Source: an uncultured Chlorobiaceae bacterium (lineage in GTDB: Bacteria > Bacteroidota > Ignavibacteria > UBA10030 > SZUA-254). Taken from it: DNA of 64,000 nt. The notes under the pieces were generated by a model. The model had not been told where the DNA came from and searched no databases. It saw nothing but the letters and a program-made list of their open reading frames with translations. The translations under genes and the position numbers were made by a program. Positions 25,268 to 47,160 of the stretch are shown here, one piece after another. The first letter of the stretch is position 1; every line of letters starts with the position of its first letter. The stretch covers positions 74,693-138,692 of the forward strand of contig CAZFXS010000008.1 in assembly GCA_964523395.1 (NCBI GenBank), read 5' to 3'.

Positions 25268-26779
25268 ATGAACCAACCCCTGACCATCGGTGAGTTACGA
25301 AAAAGCGGTTATCATGTTCACACCGTTAAAGATGAAATCCGGAATAACCTCATCGCGAAAATCAACCGAAAGGAAACGCTCTTTCCCGGCATCATTGGAT
25401 TCGGGAAAACAGTTATCCCTGCAATCATCAACGCGGTACTCGCCAAGCATGATATCATGTTATTGGGATTACGCGGGCAGGCAAAATCACGAATCGTCCG
25501 CCAGCTTCCTTCATTGCTGGATGAATATATTCCGATCATCAAAGGATGTGAGATTAATGATAACCCGTATCATCCCGTTTGCAAACGATGCACCGATTTA
25601 GTAAAAGAGAATGGAGACAATACTGAGATTGAGTGGCTTCACCGCGATGCAAGACTTGGTGAAAAATTAGCAACGCCTGACGTCACCATTGCCGATTTAA
25701 TCGGCGACATTGACCCGATCAAAGCCGCATCGCAACGGTTACACTATTCTCATGAAGGCGCGATTCACTTCGGCATCATTCCTCGTACAAACCGCGGCAT
25801 CTTCGCCATCAACGAACTTCCCGATCTTCAGCCTCGCATACAAGTAGGACTCTTTAATATCATGCAGGAAAAAGACATTCAGATCAGGGGATTCAATGTA
25901 CGGATCCCTCTCGATATCATGATTGTCTTCACCGCGAACCCCGAAGATTATACCAATCGCGGTAGCATTATCACTCCGCTCAAGGACCGGATAGATTCAC
26001 AAATCTTCACCCATTATCCGAAGACCATTGAAGACGCCATTCACATCACACAGCAGGAAGCGCATATTGAACGTGATGGAAAGGACATCATCATCCCCCA
26101 TTACTTCAAAGAGATTATAGAGCAGATTGCGTTCGAAGCGCGCAAGAGCGAGTTTGTTGATCAGAAATCGGGCGTCAGTGCGCGCATGACGATTGCCGCG
26201 CTGGAAAATCTCGTAAGCAACGCCGAACGCCGCGCGATTTTATTAGGCGACAGGCAAATTGTCCCCCGTGTTTGCGATCTGGCTTCCGTGCTTCCCGGAA
26301 TGACCGGTAAAATAGAGCTTGTATTTGAAGGAGAACAGGAAGGTCCGCTAAAAGTAGGAAAAGCATTGATCGGAAAAGCTGTGCGCGATGTCTTCAAAAA
26401 ATATTTTCCAGACCCGTTGCAGCGACGCCCTGTACGCGGACAATCACAGGAACAGCGCCAGCAACCCGAAGACACGGAGTATGGCAAAATTATTTCGTGG
26501 TTCGAATCGGGAAACAAAATTGAAATTTCTGATGATATGACCATCGATGAGTATATTCATGAGTTACAGAAAGTAAAGAACCTCTCCGATATTACAACAC
26601 GTCACATGAAAATCGCTTCCAACAATAAATATGAGCTTGCCTCTGCGATGGAATTTGTCCTGGACGGGCTGCACCAATTTTCAAAAATCGCAAAGGAGGA
26701 AGCCGAGCACCGCGTGGAATATAAAGACCTTGTGGGAAGTATTTTTACAGGAAGAGGGAAAGGGGAGGAAGATGATTGA
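25268..26779 (+). CDS. AAA+ ATPase, Mg-chelatase ChlI/MoxR-like
   Basis: ChlI-like N-terminal block FPGIIG...VLL.GLRGQAKS (degenerate Walker A) and a Walker B/sensor region (GIFAINELPDL...DIMIVFTANPED). It is paired with a downstream VWA protein. Confidence 0.65.
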   Translation: MNQPLTIGELRKSGYHVHTVKDEIRNNLIAKINRKETLFPGIIGFGKTVIPAIINAVLAKHDIMLLGLRGQAKSRIVRQLPSLLDEYIPIIKGCEINDNPYHPVCKRCTDLVKENGDNTEIEWLHRDARLGEKLATPDVTIADLIGDIDPIKAASQRLHYSHEGAIHFGIIPRTNRGIFAINELPDLQPRIQVGLFNIMQEKDIQIRGFNVRIPLDIMIVFTANPEDYTNRGSIITPLKDRIDSQIFTHYPKTIEDAIHITQQEAHIERDGKDIIIPHYFKEIIEQIAFEARKSEFVDQKSGVSARMTIAALENLVSNAERRAILLGDRQIVPRVCDLASVLPGMTGKIELVFEGEQEGPLKVGKALIGKAVRDVFKKYFPDPLQRRPVRGQSQEQRQQPEDTEYGKIISWFESGNKIEISDDMTIDEYIHELQKVKNLSDITTRHMKIASNNKYELASAMEFVLDGLHQFSKIAKEEAEHRVEYKDLVGSIFTGRGKGEEDD

Positions 26780-26785
26780 TAAAAT

Positions 26786-26829
26786 TGCGAATTTCGGATT
26801 GCGAATTTCGGATTTCATACAATTCGCAA
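26786..26829. promoter_or_regulatory. perfect 14-bp tandem repeat (TGCGAATTTCGGAT x2) plus inverted copy (AATTCGCAA) in the AAA-VWA spacer
   Basis: Read directly from the sequence. The palindromic arrangement TTGCGAATT...AATTCGCAA resembles an operator or attenuator. Confidence 0.35.
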
Positions 26830-26854
26830 TTCACAATCCTCAATTCGAAATCCC

Positions 26855-27955
26855 ATGAGATATATTTACCAAAAATGGACCCCGCAATCCCAGACTGATG
26901 AGCAACGACTCGAACAGTTGACGTCGTTGTTCAGCTATTTGCTTCTGCAAACAAACGGTGATGTTGAAGAGGCAATGGAATGGCTCCGCCAACTTGCCGA
27001 AGAGCATGGTATCTTCGATGAAAACCTGACGATGGATGATCTCATCGATAAATTGCGGGAAATGGGAATCATTGAGGAGATTAACGACACTCCGACATTA
27101 ACCACTAAAGGCCTTCAACGTATCCGCCAGGACGCACTGAAGGAAATTTTCACGTCACTTAAAAAAGGAGGCGTCGGTTCGCACGATACACCGCAAACAG
27201 GAACGGGCGTTGAGCGGTTAAGCGAAACAAAGAAGTGGGCACTCGGCGATGCGCCGACAAATATTGACCTCACATCAACTCTTACCAACGCGTTCAAACG
27301 CGGCGGCATCGATGAGTTCTCACTGAAAGAAGAAGACCTCGAAGTCTACGAAACCGAACATACCACTTCGTGCGCCACAATCCTGATGCTCGATATCAGC
27401 CACAGCATGATTCTGTACGGTGAGGACCGTATTACTCCGGCAAAACAGGTCGCACTTGCTCTTTCCGAACTTATCATGATGAAATACCCGAAAGATTATC
27501 TCGCCCTTGTTGTCTTCGGCAATGAAGCAAGTCTGATGAGTCTCAATGAATTACCTTTCCTTTCCGTAGGACCTTACCATACGAACACGCGAGCGGGATT
27601 ACAGTTGGCGCGGAATCTTTTAAGAAGAAAACGGACGGCAAACAAGCAGATATTCATGATCACCGACGGGAAACCTTCCGCGATGTTCGATGATAACGGG
27701 AGGTTGTACAAAAATTCCTTTGGACTTGACCCGCGAATAGTAAATAAAACACTCGATGAAGCGGTTGCCTGCCGTCGCGAGAAGATTACCATCAGCACAT
27801 TCATGGTCGCGCGCGACCCCTACCTGATTAACTTCGTGGAAGAGCTGACTAAAGCCAACCAAGGACGCGCGTATTATACCGGCTTACAAAATCTTGGTGA
27901 GTTTATTTTTGTGGATTACATCCGGAACAGAAGGAAGAAGTTTGGGACGATGTGA
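26855..27955 (+). CDS. VWA domain-containing protein (CoxE-like)
   Basis: The C-terminal half has MIDAS-type motifs (LDISHSM...T...ITDG). It is partnered with an AAA+ ATPase, as in the ChlI/ChlD, CoxD/CoxE and NorQ/NorD systems. Confidence 0.7.
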   Translation: MRYIYQKWTPQSQTDEQRLEQLTSLFSYLLLQTNGDVEEAMEWLRQLAEEHGIFDENLTMDDLIDKLREMGIIEEINDTPTLTTKGLQRIRQDALKEIFTSLKKGGVGSHDTPQTGTGVERLSETKKWALGDAPTNIDLTSTLTNAFKRGGIDEFSLKEEDLEVYETEHTTSCATILMLDISHSMILYGEDRITPAKQVALALSELIMMKYPKDYLALVVFGNEASLMSLNELPFLSVGPYHTNTRAGLQLARNLLRRKRTANKQIFMITDGKPSAMFDDNGRLYKNSFGLDPRIVNKTLDEAVACRREKITISTFMVARDPYLINFVEELTKANQGRAYYTGLQNLGEFIFVDYIRNRRKKFGTM

Positions 27956-38704: not shown

Positions 38705-38773
38705 TTGCCACAAAGACACGAAGGCACAAAGAAAACTTTGTGATCCTTAGTGTCTTTGTGACTTAGTGGCAAC
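38705..38773. repeat. nested palindromic element (TTGCCAC-AAAGACAC..[CACAAAG-aaaa-CTTTGTG]..GTGTCTTTGTG..GTGGCAA) 3' of serS
   Basis: Inverted repeats read directly from the sequence. It may be a terminator or attenuator structure. Confidence 0.5.
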
Positions 38774-38857
38774 ATACTACCTACCCATGCTTTTCTCTCA
38801 ACTCTTTTGTATCTTAAATCATTCAAACAGAACAACAGAAAAGCATTTTCCAGACGA

Positions 38858-40618
38858 ATGAAATCCCTTCTCCGGCTCAAGCCGTACCTTTTCAAATATA
38901 AACGAACGTTAGTCTTAGGGCTTCTCACCGTTGTCGGTAGTAATCTTTTTACGGTCGTCCAACCGAAACTTGTTGGTGAGGCAGTAGATACACTAAAGCA
39001 AGGCATCGAAACCAGCAACATTGATTCAGACGGATTATTACTTTACGCCGGTGCAATTGTCGGACTTTCCCTTGTCGCGGGGATTTTTACATTCCTGACA
39101 CGGCAAACACTTATTGTGATGTCACGGCATATCGAGTTCGATCTCCGCAATGATTTTCTGGGACACATCCAAAAACTTCCGCTTTCGTATTTCCAAAACA
39201 CACCAACAGGCGACCTGATGGCACACGCGACCAACGACATCAGCGCGGTGCGCAACGTGGTGGGACCCGGCGTGATGTACCCGAGCGACACACTCATGAC
39301 ATTCACCATGACGCTCGCGATGATGCTCTGGAGTGACTGGCAGTTAACACTCATGGCGCTCGTTCCTTTGCCACTCGTATCGTACGCTGTGTACCGTTTA
39401 GGAAAACTTATCCATGAAAAATTTGAAGGGCGGCAGGAACAATTTTCCAAACTGACCATGCGCGCACAGGAGAATCTCTCCGGCATCCGCATCGTAAAGG
39501 CATACGTCCGCGAAGAGTACGAAATCAACCGCTTCTTCGACTTGAGTAAGGATTACCTGCGGCGCAACCTTGTCCTCGCGAAAATCCAGTCGCTGATGTG
39601 GCCGTTGATGTTTCTGCTCGTCGGTTTTTCGCTTGTCATTACCGTCTATTATGGTGGATTGCGTGTTATCAACGGAGAAATTTCCATTGGTACGCTCACC
39701 GCCTTCTTCGGATACTTGATTTTACTGATCTGGCCGATGATCGCGTTCGGGTGGGTGACAAACATGCTGCAGCAGGGCGCCGCCTCAATGGAGCGTCTCG
39801 CGAAAATCATGGATACGAAACCGGACATCAGCGATTCTTCGGAAACGGACTACTCTATTAAAGATATCCGGGGTGGAATTGAATTCCGCAACGCGTCGTT
39901 TATGCATAAAAATGCGGTAAAACCGACGCTGGACAATATTAATCTCAAAATCTCTCAGGGACAAACAGTTGCGGTTGTCGGATATACCGGTTCAGGAAAA
40001 TCAACACTTATCAATCTTATTCCCAGATTGTATGATATCACTGCGGGCGACGTGCTGATTGATGGCGTGAACATTAAAAGCATCCCGCTTGATGTGCTGC
40101 GTTCTCATATCGGGTATGTCCAGCAGGAAACATTTTTGTTCTCGGATACTCTGAGCGACAACATTTCTTACGGAACAGATAACGGAACTGAAGGGCATGT
40201 AAAAACCGCGGCGGAAATTTCCCAGATCGCGCGCGATGTGCAGGAGTTTCCCAAAGGTTTCGAGACGATGATCGGCGAGCGGGGCATCACGCTCTCCGGC
40301 GGACAGAAACAACGTACCAGCATCGCCCGCGCCGTCATGCGCAATCCGAAAATTCTGATACTCGACGATGCCTTGTCTGCTGTCGATACTTATACAGAAG
40401 AGGAAATCCTCAAACGCCTCCGCGGCGTGATGAAAAACCGGACAAGCATTATCATCAGCCACCGTATTTCCACAGTAAAAGATGCCGATCTGATTATTGT
40501 TTTGGATAACGGAACGATAAAAGAACGCGGAACGCATGAACAGTTGGTCGCGTTGGGTGGGATCTATGCGGATCTGTATGAGAAGCAGTTGCTGGAGGAG
40601 GAGTTGGAGCAGCTATGA
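38858..40618 (+). CDS. ABC transporter permease/ATP-binding protein (type I exporter half-transporter)
   Basis: 6-TM domain followed by an NBD: Walker A (GYTGSGKST), signature (LSGGQKQR), Walker B (ILILDDALSAVD) and H-loop (SHRIST). Confidence 0.85.
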   Translation: MKSLLRLKPYLFKYKRTLVLGLLTVVGSNLFTVVQPKLVGEAVDTLKQGIETSNIDSDGLLLYAGAIVGLSLVAGIFTFLTRQTLIVMSRHIEFDLRNDFLGHIQKLPLSYFQNTPTGDLMAHATNDISAVRNVVGPGVMYPSDTLMTFTMTLAMMLWSDWQLTLMALVPLPLVSYAVYRLGKLIHEKFEGRQEQFSKLTMRAQENLSGIRIVKAYVREEYEINRFFDLSKDYLRRNLVLAKIQSLMWPLMFLLVGFSLVITVYYGGLRVINGEISIGTLTAFFGYLILLIWPMIAFGWVTNMLQQGAASMERLAKIMDTKPDISDSSETDYSIKDIRGGIEFRNASFMHKNAVKPTLDNINLKISQGQTVAVVGYTGSGKSTLINLIPRLYDITAGDVLIDGVNIKSIPLDVLRSHIGYVQQETFLFSDTLSDNISYGTDNGTEGHVKTAAEISQIARDVQEFPKGFETMIGERGITLSGGQKQRTSIARAVMRNPKILILDDALSAVDTYTEEEILKRLRGVMKNRTSIIISHRISTVKDADLIIVLDNGTIKERGTHEQLVALGGIYADLYEKQLLEEELEQL

Positions 40619-40634
40619 AAAAGCTAAGATAATT

Positions 40635-40664
40635 CAAAAGTCAAAAATAAAAAGTAAAAAGGGA
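40635..40664. repeat. AT-rich repeat (inverted copy) TCAAAAGTCAAAAATAAAAAGTAAAAAGGG upstream of four-helix-bundle ORF
   Basis: Reverse-complement-related to the direct copies at 41051-41087 and 47125-47160. Confidence 0.5.
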
Positions 40665-40670
40665 GGAGTT

Positions 40671-41033
40671 ATGTATCAAGATATCAAGGAGCGGACATTT
40701 TCGTTTGCTGTAGTAATTACGAGATTGGTAAAAACACTGTATAGAAACAGAGAGGATGATGTTTTGACAAAACAGGTATTTCGGTCAGGAACATCAATCG
40801 GCGCAAACGTGGAAGAGGCAGCTGCTTCGTATAGTAGAGATGAATATATTTACAAAATGAACATTGCGCTTAAGGAAGCCAGGGAAACTCACTATTGGCT
40901 TAGAATACTTAGAGAGTCCGAAATTGTTGAAGCAAAGCGTATACAGAATATCATTGATGAAAGTGAAGAAATCAAAAAAGTACTTGGAGCAATTGTAAGT
41001 AAGTTAAGAAACAAATCAAAGGTCAAAAATTAA
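40671..41033 (+). CDS. four-helix-bundle protein (family recalled as TIGR02436, the 23S rRNA intervening-sequence-type protein)
   Basis: About 120 aa with family blocks FRSGTSIGANVEEA and EARETHYWL. A GGAGG RBS precedes it. Composition is AT-rich. Confidence 0.8.
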   Translation: MYQDIKERTFSFAVVITRLVKTLYRNREDDVLTKQVFRSGTSIGANVEEAAASYSRDEYIYKMNIALKEARETHYWLRILRESEIVEAKRIQNIIDESEEIKKVLGAIVSKLRNKSKVKN

Positions 41034-41050
41034 CCATTATCATTAAATCC

Positions 41051-41087
41051 ATTTTTTACTTTTGACTTTTAACTTTTTACTTAATCC
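41051..41087. repeat. AT-rich repeat ATTTTTTACTTTTGACTTTTAACTTTTTACTTAATCC (direct copy 1)
   Basis: Nearly identical to the copy at 47125-47160, and an inverted relative of 40635-40664. Confidence 0.55.
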
Positions 41088-41105
41088 AGACTAAACTTAG
41101 CCCCT

Positions 41106-42884
41106 ATGCAGGAAGAAGAAATACTCGGCAAGGCATACGACAGCCGCCTGATGAAGCGCCTCATCAAGTACCTCTCGCCGTACAAATGGTACGTCGCGCT
41201 GGGGGTGCTGACGAGCGTTGCTGTATCAGGCATGGAAGCGGTGCGGCCGTGGTTTACCAAGCATGCCGTCGATGTGAATATCGCGCAGGGCGATAAGGAA
41301 GGCCTGCTGGTGACAACACTCGGCTTTCTCGGCCTGCTGATTCTGCGCGGCGCGGTTCAATACGCTAACGCGTACCTCACGCAGTGGATCGGGCAAAAAA
41401 CAATCCTCGACCTGCGCATGGAGGTGTTCCGCCATCTTCAAAGCCTCGGACTGAAATTCTTCGACCGGAATCCTATCGGCAGGCTCATCACGCGCGTCAC
41501 CAACGACATCGAGGTGTTGAACGAAATGTTCTCCTCCGGCATCGTCATGGCATTCAGCGATGTGTTTACCATTATCGGCATTCTCTATTTCATGTTCTCG
41601 ATGAACTGGGAACTCGCGCTGATCTCGCTCAGTGTTTTGCCGCTGTTGTTTTACGGGACGTTTCTGTTCAGGAAGAAAGCGCGCGAAGCGTACCGCGAAG
41701 TCCGCATACAACTGGCCCGCATCAACACGTTCATGCAGGAACATATCACCGGAATGATGGTCGATCAGATTTTTAACCGGGAAAAGAAATCCTATGAAAA
41801 ATTCTCCGGCATCAACGCGCTTCACCGCGACGCGAATATCAAATCGATACTGTATTATTCCTTTTTCTATCCCGGTGTTGAATTGATCGGCGCGCTGGCT
41901 GTCGGTTTGATTATCTGGTACGCCGGCGTGGATGCTCTCGGGGGTTCCATCACGATAGGAACAGTGATGGCATTTCTGCAATTCAATGAAATGTTCTGGC
42001 GGCCGATCCGCGACCTTTCGGAGAAATACAACATCATGCAGACCGCCATGGCGTCATCCGAGCGTGTGTTTAAATTGCTGGATGATGATACGCTGGTTCC
42101 GGTTCCTTTATCACCGTCACCGTTACAGGAGCTTCGGGGTGAGATTGAATTCCGCAATGTCTGGTTCGCGTATGTGGATGAAGATTGGGTGCTGAAAAAC
42201 GCATCCTTCACTATTAAGCCGGGAGAAACGGTGGCATTCGTCGGACATACCGGCGCGGGGAAAACGACAATCATTAATCTCCTTACAAGATTCTATGAAT
42301 TTCAACGGGGAGAAATACTTGTTGACGGTATCGATATCCGCAACATTCATCCCCATGAATTACGGAAACATCTCGCCATAGTGTTGCAGGATGTGTTTCT
42401 CTTCTCAGGAGATATTAAATCCAATATCAATCTTGGCAACGATGAAATTTCCCTTGACCGGATCAAAGCCGCTGCAAGAGTGGTGGGCGCGCACCGGTTT
42501 ATCGAACAGCTTCCCAATCAGTACGATCAGGAAGTGAAAGAACGCGGGTCGACATTGTCTGTCGGCCAGAAGCAGTTAATTTCCTTCGCGCGCGCGCTTG
42601 CCGTAAATCCGAAAATCCTCATTCTCGACGAAGCAACATCCAGCATTGATACCGAAACAGAAATCCTTATTCAGCAAGCAATACGCAAGCTTCTGCAGGG
42701 ACGGACATCACTCGTTATCGCGCACCGGCTTTCGACCATACAGCGGGCAAACAAAATTATCGTGATGCACAAGGGGGAAATCCGCGAAATGGGGACGCAT
42801 CAGGAATTGCTTTCGCTTGGAGGAATTTATTATAAATTATATCGATTGCAATACAAAGAACAGGAAATAACGGTCAATAATTAA
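41106..42884 (+). CDS. ABC transporter permease/ATP-binding protein (type I exporter half-transporter, probable heterodimer partner)
   Basis: 6-TM domain followed by an NBD: Walker A (GHTGAGKTT), signature (LSVGQKQL), Walker B (ILILDEATSSID) and H-loop (AHRLST). Confidence 0.9.
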   Translation: MQEEEILGKAYDSRLMKRLIKYLSPYKWYVALGVLTSVAVSGMEAVRPWFTKHAVDVNIAQGDKEGLLVTTLGFLGLLILRGAVQYANAYLTQWIGQKTILDLRMEVFRHLQSLGLKFFDRNPIGRLITRVTNDIEVLNEMFSSGIVMAFSDVFTIIGILYFMFSMNWELALISLSVLPLLFYGTFLFRKKAREAYREVRIQLARINTFMQEHITGMMVDQIFNREKKSYEKFSGINALHRDANIKSILYYSFFYPGVELIGALAVGLIIWYAGVDALGGSITIGTVMAFLQFNEMFWRPIRDLSEKYNIMQTAMASSERVFKLLDDDTLVPVPLSPSPLQELRGEIEFRNVWFAYVDEDWVLKNASFTIKPGETVAFVGHTGAGKTTIINLLTRFYEFQRGEILVDGIDIRNIHPHELRKHLAIVLQDVFLFSGDIKSNINLGNDEISLDRIKAAARVVGAHRFIEQLPNQYDQEVKERGSTLSVGQKQLISFARALAVNPKILILDEATSSIDTETEILIQQAIRKLLQGRTSLVIAHRLSTIQRANKIIVMHKGEIREMGTHQELLSLGGIYYKLYRLQYKEQEITVNN

Positions 42885-42892
42885 CCTCTGTC

Positions 42893-42919
42893 CACGACCT
42901 GAGGGTCGTGGCTTTTTCA
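42893..42919 (+). terminator. Rho-independent terminator
   Basis: CCACGACC-tgag-GGTCGTGG forms a perfect 8-bp stem and is followed by CTTTTTC. Confidence 0.8.
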
Positions 42920-43037: not shown

Positions 43038-44540
43038 ATGAAACGCACCGCACTAATCCTTGTATTCCTGTTTAATTTTCAGTTTCTCCTAGCACAAAGC
43101 AAACAATCAAACGCGGGTGAACGGACTTCGGTCGATCTCACCATCTACAATCAAAACTTATCGCTGATACGCGAAGAGCGAACCATCAATATCGCGAAAG
43201 GGCTGAGTAAAGTCGTAATTCCGGATATTCCGGCAACAATCGACGGCACGTCTCTTCACTTCCTCAGCCGTACAGCCCCGGCAGCGGTTAGTGTTCTCGA
43301 GCAAAATTATCAGTATGACCTTGTCAGCCAGGGGAAACTCCTTGAAAAGTACATCGGAAAGGAAGTAGAATTCATCCGTGTTAACGAAGAAACTAAAAAA
43401 GAATACACAGTCAAGGGAAAAATCCTCTCCACCGGTTACCAGGTTCAGCCCATATATGGAAGTTCTGCTACGAATTACGCGTACGTTGGAGGTATGGTAG
43501 CGGAGATTAACGGTAAAATCGAAATGAATCCGGCAGGACGCCTTGTGCTTCCGAGCTTGCCGGAAGGCTTAATACTAAAACCGCAGTTAGAATGGCTGGT
43601 CAGCAATTCACAGCCTGGCGACCACAAAAGTGAAATCAGTTATCTTGCCGGCGGGCTTTCGTGGAACGCGAATTATGTCGCGCTGCTGAATAAAGACGAC
43701 AACCAGCTCGACCTCACGGGATGGGTAACGCTGACAAACAGTTCAGGCACATCGTTTAGTAATGCAGGCTTAAAACTTGTTGCGGGCGATGTTAATGTTG
43801 TACAGGATGAGCTCGCGTTCAGAGGCGGGCGCATGATGGAGACTATGGCAAAATCCGCAGATCAGCAGCAGTTCAAACAAACCGAACTGTTCGAATATAA
43901 ACTTTACTCCCTGCAGCGAAAGACAAATCTGAACAACAATGAAACCAAACAGATTGAGCTTGTCTCCGGGAATAATGTCAGCTCGAAGAAAGTGTTTATT
44001 TATGACGGGCTGGCCGATCAATGGCGTTCATGGTACAATAATTATTCTTACAGAAATCAGGAAAGCTTCGGACAGCAATCGAATACGAAAGTCGGAGTGT
44101 TCGTTACATTTAAAAATGACGAGAAATCAGGACTGGGTATTCCACTCCCGAAAGGGAAAGTCCGCGTTTACAAACGGGATGATGATGGAAAAGAGCAGTT
44201 CATCGGCGAGGATCAGATTGATCATACACCGAAAGATGAAGAGTTACGATTATATCTCGGCAATGCATTTGATCTTGTGGGTGAACGCGCGCAGACAAAT
44301 TTCAAATCATTCCCCGGCGGACGGATGATTGAAGAGACCGTTCAGATAAAAGTCCGCAACCATAAAAATGAAACTGCAGAAGTTCAGGTATATGAGCATC
44401 CCTGGCGGTGGAGCCAGTGGGAAATTACCAAAAGCAGTACTGAGTACGTGAAGGTGGATCAGTCGACTGTGAAATTTCCAGTGAAGATTGAAAAGGATGG
44501 AGAGAAGGTGGTAACCTATACCATCAGATACAGTTGGTAA
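43038..44540 (+). CDS. hypothetical secreted protein (DUF4139/MuiA-like, tentative)
   Basis: Signal peptide. The general layout matches DUF4139-type proteins as recalled. No catalytic motifs were seen. Confidence 0.4.
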   Translation: MKRTALILVFLFNFQFLLAQSKQSNAGERTSVDLTIYNQNLSLIREERTINIAKGLSKVVIPDIPATIDGTSLHFLSRTAPAAVSVLEQNYQYDLVSQGKLLEKYIGKEVEFIRVNEETKKEYTVKGKILSTGYQVQPIYGSSATNYAYVGGMVAEINGKIEMNPAGRLVLPSLPEGLILKPQLEWLVSNSQPGDHKSEISYLAGGLSWNANYVALLNKDDNQLDLTGWVTLTNSSGTSFSNAGLKLVAGDVNVVQDELAFRGGRMMETMAKSADQQQFKQTELFEYKLYSLQRKTNLNNNETKQIELVSGNNVSSKKVFIYDGLADQWRSWYNNYSYRNQESFGQQSNTKVGVFVTFKNDEKSGLGIPLPKGKVRVYKRDDDGKEQFIGEDQIDHTPKDEELRLYLGNAFDLVGERAQTNFKSFPGGRMIEETVQIKVRNHKNETAEVQVYEHPWRWSQWEITKSSTEYVKVDQSTVKFPVKIEKDGEKVVTYTIRYSW

Positions 44541-44545
44541 GTTGA

Positions 44546-44655
44546 CAGCGGATTAAGGGATAATATCGGATAAAGCAAATGACAACAGATGACAGCGAAT
44601 GAAGAGAAATAAAAAGATTTGTTGATCCATTCGTAACCCTTTTATCCGCTGTAAT
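44546..44655. repeat. palindromic repeat region built on TGACAGCGGAT units (direct copies 44546-44562, 44583-44600; inverted copy 44636-44655)
   Basis: TGACAGCGGATTAAGGG versus the reverse complement of CCCTTTTATCCGCTGT. A further inverted copy, ATCCGTTGTCA, lies at 45096-45106 on the far side of the GxxExxY gene. Confidence 0.5.
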
Positions 44656-45064
44656 CTTTTAATCCACTGTTACGTTGCTGCCACTTTTTAGGAGGAAGGA
44701 TTCGTTTATACTGCAACTTACCTTGCCCAAAATTGACTAGGAGCCCCACCCTTAGATTAGTGAGCTGGAGATATTTAAGAACCTGAAATAAATGAAGATC
44801 GGTAAGTTCTTTGACAGATTTAATTTCCAGTATCAAACAATTATCAATTTCGAAATCGAAAAAGTTTTTCCCGATCTGCACATTTTTATACTTCATTGAA
44901 AAGTGTTTTTGCGGTGTTGCGGTAAGTTGTTGATTTGAAAACTCGAGTTGAAGTGCTCTTTGGTAATACCTTTCATGAAACCCCGGTCCAATCTCCCTGT
45001 GAACCTCCATGCAGATCCCGATTACTTTATAAGTGAGATCAGTAATATCCTTCCCTAACTCCAT
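44642..45064 (-). CDS. GxxExxY protein (PD-(D/E)XK-like small protein family)
   Basis: N-terminal KVIGICMEVHREIGPGFHERYYQ matches the GxxExxY signature, and a C-terminal LLVNFGQGKLQYKRI block is present. Confidence 0.75.
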   Translation of the reverse strand: MELGKDITDLTYKVIGICMEVHREIGPGFHERYYQRALQLEFSNQQLTATPQKHFSMKYKNVQIGKNFFDFEIDNCLILEIKSVKELTDLHLFQVLKYLQLTNLRVGLLVNFGQGKLQYKRILPPKKWQQRNSGLKDYSG

Positions 45065-45124
45065 TTATCCTCCCATTTAATTCGATCTAATCCATTTATC
45101 CGTTGTCAATCATGTAATCCGCCG

Positions 45125-46135
45125 TCACCTTTTTCCCTGAAGAAACTCTTCGCAAAGTTTTACATCTTCTTCACTGCCCAGGAATACCGGAGTATGCTGA
45201 TGCAACGATGTCGGCTGTACGTTGAGGATGCTTGTTTTACCGTTACTGGATTTTCCTCCGGCCTGTTCAATGATATAGGCCATCGGATTGCACTCATACA
45301 TCAGACGCAGTTTGCCGTCAGGATTTTTCTTATCGCCGGGGTAGGCAAAGATTCCTCCATAGAGAAGCGTACGGTGTGCATCGCCGACCATTGTGCCGAT
45401 ATAGCGGAGAGAGTACGGACGGTTCGTGGCTTTGTCGGGAGTTTTTAAATATTGAATATATTTTTGCATCCCTTCATCCCAATTCCCGTAATTGCCTTCA
45501 TTCATGCTGTAGATTTTTCCCTTCTTGGGAATTCTAATATTCTCATGAGACAGCAAAAACTCTCCGACACTGGGATCCAGAGTAAATCCGTGAACACCTT
45601 TCCCTGTTGAATACACAAAAATTGTGCTTGAGCCATAGATAATATATCCTGCCGCAACCTGCTTGTAGCCGGGCTGGAGACAGTCTTCGCGCGTTCCTTT
45701 TCCGCTTGTCGTTACACGCTTGAAGATGCTGAAAATAGAACCGATGGTAATGTTAGCATCGATGTTTGAAGAACCATCCAGCGGATCATAGAGAAGAACG
45801 TATTTTCCGGCAAAATACTCGTCGGGAATATGCAGAATGTCTTCGTTTTCTTCCGACGCCATCACGCACACATGTCCGCCGTGATCCATCGCCTTGAAAA
45901 TGGTTTCGTCGGCAAACACATCCAGTTTCTTTACGATATCGCCGCTGGTATTCGTCTGATCTGTCGTGCCGAGAACATCCACAAGTCCCGCTTTACTCAC
46001 TTCGCGCCAGACAAGTTTTGCCGCAAGAGAAAGATCGTGAAGCAAACCGGAAAATTCACCGGTCGCACCAGGATGCATTTCTTCCTGTTCGTTGATAAAA
46101 CGTTCGAGTGTCATGAATTTTTTCGGCGGCGCCAT
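45125..46135 (-). CDS. fbp: fructose-1,6-bisphosphatase class 1
   Basis: FBPase-1 blocks: DPLDGSSN metal-binding motif and a GKLRLMYECNPMA block. Length is 336 aa. Confidence 0.9.
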   Translation of the reverse strand: MAPPKKFMTLERFINEQEEMHPGATGEFSGLLHDLSLAAKLVWREVSKAGLVDVLGTTDQTNTSGDIVKKLDVFADETIFKAMDHGGHVCVMASEENEDILHIPDEYFAGKYVLLYDPLDGSSNIDANITIGSIFSIFKRVTTSGKGTREDCLQPGYKQVAAGYIIYGSSTIFVYSTGKGVHGFTLDPSVGEFLLSHENIRIPKKGKIYSMNEGNYGNWDEGMQKYIQYLKTPDKATNRPYSLRYIGTMVGDAHRTLLYGGIFAYPGDKKNPDGKLRLMYECNPMAYIIEQAGGKSSNGKTSILNVQPTSLHQHTPVFLGSEEDVKLCEEFLQGKR

Positions 46136-47124: not shown

Positions 47125-47160
47125 AATCTTTTTACTTTTGACTTTTTAATTTTTACTTGA
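47125..47160. repeat. AT-rich repeat AATCTTTTTACTTTTGACTTTTTAATTTTTACTTGA (direct copy 2)
   Basis: About 29 of 31 nt identical to 41051-41087. It lies in the etfB-etfA spacer immediately before the etfA ATG. Confidence 0.55.

Follow-up and report, generated by a model that had tools for sequence, protein, structure and literature searches.

The stretch analysed here, referred to throughout as the window, comprises 64,000 nucleotides (positions 74,693 to 138,692) of contig CAZFXS010000008.1 in assembly GCA_964523395.1, from an uncultured Chlorobiaceae bacterium. The element in question occupies the spacer between two genes for ATP-binding cassette (ABC) half-transporters, here called ABC1 and ABC2. 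An AT-rich spacer of about 480 bp splitting an ABC gene pair had been predicted from the sequence, and this was confirmed: both neighbours encode ABC_membrane and ABC_tran domains, and the 487 bp from the TGA stop codon of ABC1 (40616-40618) to the ABC2 start (40619-41105) have a G+C content of 0.33 vs 0.49 in the ABC genes. The spacer carries one gene, IVP, in the sense orientation, on the same strand as ABC1 and ABC2 and exactly between the stop codon of the one and the start codon of the other (Table 1). The original prediction had assigned its product to a TIGR02436-like four-helix-bundle family, which is correct, and had given it 121 aa, which is not, as the protein has 120 aa. By sequence similarity, IVP is a member of PF05635/TIGR02436, matching PF05635 with E=1.4e-22 (80.3 bits, cut-off 33.8, profile positions 4-105 of 106) and TIGR02436 with E=2.5e-28 (98.5 bits, cut-off 24, positions 1-108 of 109). 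It also matches a solved Bacteroides protein, Protein Data Bank (PDB) entry 2rld (E=8.6e-25), which holds five chains. A profile search reached 2rld and, weakly, 2gsc; it reached no Avd chain. By its similarity to 2rld, the IVP protein may have a four-helix-bundle fold and may assemble into a pentameric ring. No consensus terminator or promoter was found between ABC1, IVP and ABC2, and a strong terminator-like hairpin follows ABC2; the IVP gene and its flanks would thus appear to ride on the operon transcript.

Table 1. Coordinates of the features described in the window
Feature	Position	Strand	Details
ABC1, half-transporter gene (upstream host)	38807-40618	+	ABC_membrane 6e-52, ABC_tran 1.9e-31; start codon uncertain
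Outer stem half GCTAAG	40623-40628	+	pairs with CTTAGC at 41096-41101 in the minimum-free-energy fold of 40616-41108
Left arm	40630-40660	+	A-rich, about four heptamers AAAAGTN; Tandem Repeats Finder period 7, 3.7 copies (40636-40661)
Shine-Dalgarno-like GGGAGG	40661-40666	+	4 nt 5' of the IVP ATG, read from sequence
IVP, four-helix-bundle gene	40671-41033	+	120 aa plus stop; matches PF05635, TIGR02436, PDB 2rld
A-rich 3' end of IVP	41004-41033	+	direct repeat with left arm, 86%; inverted repeat with right arm, 30 nt, 77%
Right arm	41053-41083	+	T-rich, about four heptamers TTTTNAC; Tandem Repeats Finder period 7, 4.3 copies (41053-41082)
Outer stem half CTTAGC	41096-41101	+	4 nt 5' of the ABC2 ATG
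ABC2, half-transporter gene (downstream host)	41106-42884	+	ABC_membrane 3.7e-53, ABC_tran 1e-32
Terminator-like hairpin (strong) and T-run after ABC2	42892-42911	+	
Solo T-rich heptamer array, etfB-etfA spacer	47128-47158	+	28/31 identical to right arm (3 mismatches)
18-nt tandem repeat CTTTGTGACCTTAGTGT	38736-38768		1.9 copies, just 5' of ABC1
ORF-less hairpin of inverted heptamers	26784-26853		ATTGCGA/ATTTCGG vs CAATTCG; -23.1 kcal/mol, z=-2.05
GxxExxY / PDDEXK_3 gene	44642-45064	-	140 aa; TIGR04256 4.2e-37, PF13366 3.1e-35; low G+C
Flanks of the GxxExxY gene	44539-44574, 45098-45131		inverted repeats (17 nt at 88%, 24 nt at 71%)

The gene is enclosed by two arms that form an inverted repeat of 31 nt with 84% complementarity (alignment score z=7.3 vs shuffles); an inverted repeat had been predicted here at coordinates that were off by a few bases. 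The right arm reads TTTTTAC TTTTGAC TTTTAAC TTTTTAC and the left arm is its complement, so that each consists of tandem heptamers, a feature absent from the original prediction. The third copy that it had placed in the etfB-etfA spacer was also found and, like the two arms, is a tandem array of period 7. No chance match to the right-arm 31-mer was expected from 100 shuffles and two were found, while no copy beyond these three occurs in the 64-kb window. The solo array stops 5 nt before the etfA ATG and the right arm stops 22 nt before the ABC2 start. When the etfB-etfA spacer was inspected in nine relatives, a comparable array was seen only in L012 (L numbers designate loci from relatives and metagenomes).

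The two arms pair with each other when 40616-41108 is folded to minimum free energy, as the original prediction had proposed, and an outer GCUAAG/CUUAGC helix closes the structure, its base lying 4 nt past the ABC1 stop codon and 4 nt ahead of the ABC2 start. The arm duplex, at -22.6 kcal/mol compared with -14.6 +/- 3.2 in shuffles, is the only one of the spacer folding energies to stand out. The A-rich 3' end of IVP gives the right arm an alternative local pairing partner, the hairpin between them having an energy of -14.3 kcal/mol (z=-1.7). At the very 3' end of the gene, the stretch specifying K S K V K N is 86% identical to the left arm, and the Lys/Ser-rich C-terminal tail of the protein may derive from a heptamer array.

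A search with ABC2 retrieved 80 loci from different Ignavibacteria-like species (74-86% identity), and the ABC1-ABC2 junction could be read in 72 of these. A PF05635 gene occupies exactly the window position in 20 of the 72, the same junction thus being filled in 20 species with the same housekeeping neighbours, and the spacer is 60 nt or less in 34, several of which have overlapping stop and start codons. It is 61-330 nt long in a further 15; several of these intermediate spacers are ORF-less hairpins of inverted heptamer arrays (L007, L022 with the unit GTACTTN, L027 with GTCATTN, and L040; ORF, open reading frame), and others are solo T-rich arrays (L032, L049, L050 and L057). The remaining three junctions hold a Y1 transposase gene between GC-rich hairpins (L067 and L079) or a membrane ORF between heptamer arms (L033). 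Occupied junctions are scattered across the ABC2 tree and sister taxa differ. The cassette, that is, the gene with its arms, has a G+C content about 10 points below that of its flanks in all 19 relatives. Comparison of filled L004 with empty L013, a single pair, showed a clean insertion right after the stop codon and no target duplication. A second apparent pair, with L071 as the empty counterpart of filled L068, was rejected: the cassette position in L071 is a run of N, and the near-identical L090 is filled. The same ORF at the same position and with normal composition in relatives, which would have spoken against an insertion, was therefore not what was seen: the distribution is patchy, the ORFs do not follow the host tree, and the composition is shifted. 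These states of the junction, together with the exchange of cassettes described below, bear out the suggestion of a small selfish or IVS-like element, or of a dispersed repeat that attracts insertions (IVS, intervening sequence).

Other contents of the junction deserve separate mention. The Y1 genes (L067 5323-5997 and L079 5419-5946) are IS200-like (PF01797, 1e-11 and 7.3e-14) and bracketed by GC-rich hairpins such as GTCGCCCTGAAGGGCGAC, an arrangement resembling that of repetitive extragenic palindromic (REP) sequences and REP-associated tyrosine transposases (RAYT). GC-rich REP-like palindromes (GCGCCCTTTAGGGCGC, GAACCTTGCGAAGGTT) with no ORF were found in the ABC1-ABC2 spacers of L029, L041, L063 and L072. 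The ABC1-ABC2 junction is a general landing place for hairpin-forming repeats. The heptamer arms in L033 (5541-5906) surround a hydrophobic ORF of 121 aa that has no Pfam match above the curated threshold. In L001 (5470-5930) the IVP gene is frameshifted; downstream of it come a second A-rich array, which has a Shine-Dalgarno-like sequence, and about 500 bp more, with a possible second ORF of 80 aa that begins after some 150 nt, and one right arm closes the whole. A T-rich array of the window type lies just 5' of ABC2 in L003 (140-171), where the contig ends before ABC1.

Cassettes of this kind are not confined to the ABC operon. When metagenome contigs were scanned with aligned IVP proteins, 80 further loci were recovered, and inverted flanks were sought within 90 nt of 92 genes, made up of the window, ABC-site and metagenome loci. 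Inverted heptamer flanks at z>=3 were present in 78 of the 92. The heptamer unit varies by locus, yet both arms of one locus match (examples are GAATTTA/TAAATTC, GAAGGGT/ACCCTTC, AATGAAT/ATTCATT and AATTACT/AGTAATT), and the heptamer type tracks the clades of the IVP proteins, one clade having the T-rich array on the upstream side. The inverted repeats have a median length of 30 nt (interquartile range 25-32), or about 4.3 units; L161 has exactly four perfect units on either side, and L052, L110 and L028 have arrays of 8-12 units. A Shine-Dalgarno 5-mer precedes 31 of the 92 IVP starts vs none of 71 ABC2 starts. Both neighbours are co-oriented with the IVP gene in 42 of 49 loci, and there the gene mostly starts about 20-70 nt past the upstream ORF; in many loci the right arm stops a few bases before the ATG of the next gene. 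Host sites that could be identified include pdxA-ksgA, trpE-trpG and a restriction-modification pair (res-mod). A search of 20 metagenome loci for rRNA genes found none, and two of these loci have a tRNA gene downstream of the cassette, within a few nt past the right heptamer arm in one (L154 1447-1518) and about 100 nt past the IVP gene in the other (L159 990-1061). A viral origin was rejected; a collection of 2.9 million viral contigs yielded only one relative, which again has heptamer arms, with four perfect AATTCGT units per side.

The divergence of IVP is discordant with that of its hosts. ABC2 identity is about 98% between L009 and L010, 93% between L046 and L068, and 89% between L034 and L066, and the corresponding IVP identities are 67%, 43% and 93%. 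The DNA of L009 and L010 is 88-95% identical along 6 kb and 52-69% identical across the cassette, the similarity breaking about 20 nt into the left arm and resuming roughly 12 nt before the right arm ends; synonymous sites of the two IVP ORFs are saturated. The gene is passed on together with its arms, and the cassette has been exchanged between close relatives. The other segment where the similarity of L009 and L010 drops is the spacer 5' of ABC1, and T-rich arrays of the window type lie just 5' of ABC1 in both (L009 3718-3749, L010 3768-3803). The IVP protein is under purifying selection, with a ratio of non-synonymous to synonymous rates (dN/dS) of 0.05-0.12 among closer pairs at the ABC site. 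Decay is also seen, with an in-frame stop in L064 and frameshifts in L046 and L001, and the truncated genes of L093 and L098 are probably pseudogenes as well. A 92-protein tree places the ABC-site genes largely in one clade, inside which a few genes from other sites are nested (e.g. trpE-trpG of L091), and those at the pdxA-ksgA and DUF354 sites each form a clade of their own. Taken together, the discordance, the decay and the clades are best accounted for by a history in which cassettes stay long at one site, are often lost, are replaced laterally among lineages and rarely move to a new site.

Because its anatomy matches that of the IVS in the 23S rRNA of Coxiella burnetii (compared below), the 487-bp spacer is, in our judgement, probably an IVS-type selfish gene cassette living in an mRNA operon. 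The element lies outside the strict rRNA IVS class because an rRNA location was looked for and not found, there being no match to rRNA or any other Rfam family in 40300-41400 at E<=1; in all the other IVS features open to testing it agrees with that class. The cassette would comprise a PF05635/TIGR02436 gene, a Shine-Dalgarno sequence belonging to that gene and, on either side, an array of about four heptamers, the two arrays being inverted relative to each other. Once transcribed, the arms and the outer GCUAAG/CUUAGC helix would pair to close an A.U-rich stem of 30-37 bp, looping out the whole ORF, and by analogy with the 23S rRNA intervening sequences this stem would be a likely RNase III substrate. 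Either looping-out or cleavage could render the insertion harmless enough for the operon, and would explain how 0.5 kb is tolerated between cistrons that touch or overlap in most relatives. Spread would be mainly vertical, with frequent loss, lateral replacement via the arms or the flanks, and rare jumps to new intercistronic sites.

Several observations weigh against this interpretation or parts of it. The spacer as a whole folds no more stably than its shuffles (z=-0.72). Mismatches between arms include 43 of the G.U type and 45 of the A.C type; there is no excess of the kind that selection on the sense RNA would leave, and the spectrum gives no signal of RNA-specific pairing. Complementarity, in arm alignments that heptamer slippage makes ambiguous, is 0.87 in the best register, only moderately above the 0.68 at a shift of 7; most of it results from the arms sharing one heptamer. 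Most mismatches are of the transversion type, and 99 fall in one heptamer phase vs 73.7 +/- 3.6 expected. From the mismatch, register and fold tests, therefore, the heptamer array itself, in both orientations, rather than base-by-base pairing, may be the selected unit, which leaves room for the binding-site and leader explanations considered next. Cleavage of the window stem by RNase III is assumed purely by analogy. The cassette encodes no recombinase or nuclease that would carry it to a new site. Lastly, the ABC-site genes form largely a single clade, and therefore much of the pattern could reflect a single ancient insertion, later lost in some lineages and replaced by other alleles in others, instead of active mobility.

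If the array is what is selected, it might be a putative binding site of the encoded protein, a pentameric ring taking up approximately one heptamer per subunit in RNA or single-stranded DNA. The cassette would then be a self-recognising unit serving autoregulation, protection or mobilisation, with stem formation secondary. We consider this unlikely, though several features fit it: each arm repeats a single heptamer in which one position is free, unlike a strictly co-evolving stem, array length is narrowly distributed around the values given above (with four perfect units per side in L161), heptamer type follows IVP clade, purifying selection on the protein is strong, the entry for its nearest solved homologue (2rld) contains five chains, and relatives (Avd) bind nucleic acid (PMC10053308). 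However, co-inheritance of arms and gene suffices for the correlation with clade, some arrays are far longer (the 8-12 units of L052, L110 and L028), and ORF-less hairpins and solo arrays with other heptamers occur without a nearby IVP gene. A wider version, which we put forward with the same reserve, is that PF05635 proteins and their own arrays, of about four to five units, are self-recognising pairs in which putative ring binding to RNA or single-stranded DNA promotes maintenance, processing or movement of the cassette; they would then be widespread autonomous elements, lacking both transposase and reverse transcriptase, that colonise transcribed spacers, the rRNA IVSs being the case noticed first. 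Alternatively, the arrays could be host leader elements, translational or otherwise regulatory, of the type of the short tandemly repeated repetitive (STRR) sequences or the TAACTGA repeats, with the IVP gene merely lodged beside one and the inverted symmetry without function. Solo T-rich arrays do lie directly 5' of the starts of etfA, of ABC2 (L032, L049, L050 and L057; also L003) and of ABC1 (L009 and L010), and ABC2 has no Shine-Dalgarno sequence of its own (0/71). The right arm also contains TACTTTTG, which we take to fit the Bacteroidetes -7 promoter box TAnnTTTG. Direct heptamer repeats upstream of start codons, with a proposed translational role, are on record for Beggiatoaceae, Cyanobacteria and Bacteroidetes (PMC4679880). 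An independent leader would not, however, yield a matched inverted partner with locus-specific heptamers at 78 of 92 IVP genes, and the arrays are absent from most orthologous spacers and so dispensable for the host genes. A leader origin thus seems quite improbable.

The two remaining explanations were excluded. That the gene is a remnant or an accessory (Avd) of a diversity-generating retroelement (DGR) would accord with PF05635 resembling Avd and being the Pfam family most often seen beside DGR reverse transcriptases (PMC10053308). This is nevertheless very unlikely: the window neighbours (serS, the two ABC genes, a DUF4139 gene, a fructose-bisphosphatase gene, the genes for electron transfer flavoprotein beta and alpha and a bifunctional nuclease gene) include no reverse transcriptase, all those within about 5 kb are housekeeping genes or lack a Pfam match, the junction is filled in 20 species beside the same housekeeping genes, and a single relative was found in the viral contigs. 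Chance similarity within AT-rich low-complexity spacer DNA, to which the A/T-rich arms and the unexceptional total folding energy of the spacer might point, has a negligible probability given the shuffle statistics (two 31-mer matches where none was expected, and z=7.3 for the inverted repeat) and the recurrence of the same architecture with different heptamers, including the G+C-containing GAAGGGT and AATTCGT.

The window and its relatives contain further arrays and insertions. The GxxExxY gene lies between the DUF4139 gene and fbp, at a position that in most relatives comprises only 30-178 nt, and it is therefore also an insertion. A strong hairpin (-36.2 kcal/mol, z=-3.9) follows its stop codon. 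That it uses the same container as IVP was not supported, as its flanks in the window are of a looser kind and a homologue in L117 has direct copies of a hairpin element on its two sides instead. The ORF-less hairpin at 26784-26853 fills the 75-nt spacer of two co-oriented ORFs (25268-26779 and 26855-27955), and the etfB-etfA spacer of L012 has a unit resembling it. Other tandem heptamer arrays have unrelated units such as CCCCAAT, CCCATAA, CCTAAAA and GGTTCGA (L008 6984-7017, L068 2010-2066, L046 2065-2110, L003 3567-3608 and others), and a strict detector counted 69 heptamer arrays in 0.95 Mb of the relatives' sequence. Some of these units presumably resemble the cyanobacterial STRR units. 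The 18-nt tandem repeat 5' of ABC1 is listed in Table 1.

Intervening sequences that carry an ORF have been known in 23S rRNA since the 1990s. To our knowledge, neither the role of the protein they encode nor their means of spread has been explained so far. If the same kind of element resides in mRNA operons, rRNA is one of many host sites and the elements are not specific to it; they would be defined by a PF05635 gene with heptamer arrays inverted on its two sides, and hundreds of natural insertion, loss and replacement events would be open to study. The arrays also offer a conserved nucleic-acid handle on the large 'four helix bundle protein' family that includes the DGR protein Avd. What would be new is thus the extension of intervening sequences beyond rRNA and the tie between a large uncharacterised family and a conserved nucleic-acid feature; no PF05635 cassettes with heptamer arms outside rRNA were found in the literature, of which most subscription journals were not covered. 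The question is also raised of how operons for heterodimeric enzymes (ABC1/ABC2, TrpE/TrpG) tolerate an insertion of 0.5 kb between cistrons.

Among the closest known systems are the ORF-bearing IVSs of 23S rRNA (Coxiella; also Leptospira, Brucella and Xanthomonas). In C. burnetii, the 23S rRNA IVS has a 28-bp terminal stem that is cut by RNase III, a sense S23p ORF and, from the cleavage site to the ATG, two to three tandem copies of the heptamer GACAGAT; the number of heptamers differs among strains, the G+C content is below that of the genome and the IVS was acquired horizontally (PMC4990558). The window element shares with rRNA IVSs the protein family (PF05635/S23p), the sense ORF, terminal inverted repeats forming a stem of about 28-31 bp around it, a G+C content lower than that of the host, a sporadic distribution and decay of the ORF in some lineages, and with that of Coxiella the tandem purine-rich heptamers between the start of the stem and the ATG. 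It differs in its host site, an intercistronic spacer of a protein-coding operon and not a 23S rRNA helix. A strong Shine-Dalgarno sequence precedes its ORF, which purifying selection maintains, whereas that of Coxiella seems to be untranslated and decaying, and cleavage by RNase III, which has been shown for Coxiella, is for the window element suggested by analogy.

Avd, the accessory variability determinant of DGRs, is a homologous small four-helix-bundle protein (PMC10053308), though there is neither a reverse transcriptase nor a template/variable repeat in the window and the genes reside in housekeeping operons. REP sequences and bacterial interspersed mosaic elements with their RAYT (Y1) genes are likewise dispersed intergenic hairpin repeats that enclose a small gene in some copies and are ORF-less in others, and a Y1_Tnp gene with GC-rich hairpins occupies the very same ABC junction (only in L067 and L079); however, the window arms are AT-rich heptamer arrays and not single GC-rich palindromes, and PF05635 is no known kind of transposase. 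Unlike insertion sequences and miniature inverted-repeat transposable elements, the window element has no transposase and, on the evidence of the single pair L004 and L013, makes no target-site duplication. Finally, the cyanobacterial STRR sequences and the TAACTGA repeats are intergenic tandem heptamers, often a few bases before a start codon (PMC4679880), and the solo array before etfA is of this kind. Those are described as direct repeats, each genome having essentially one unit sequence, and a single inverted case is on record, whereas in the window two inverted arrays bracket a gene, and the unit varies by cassette lineage and differs from the published ones.

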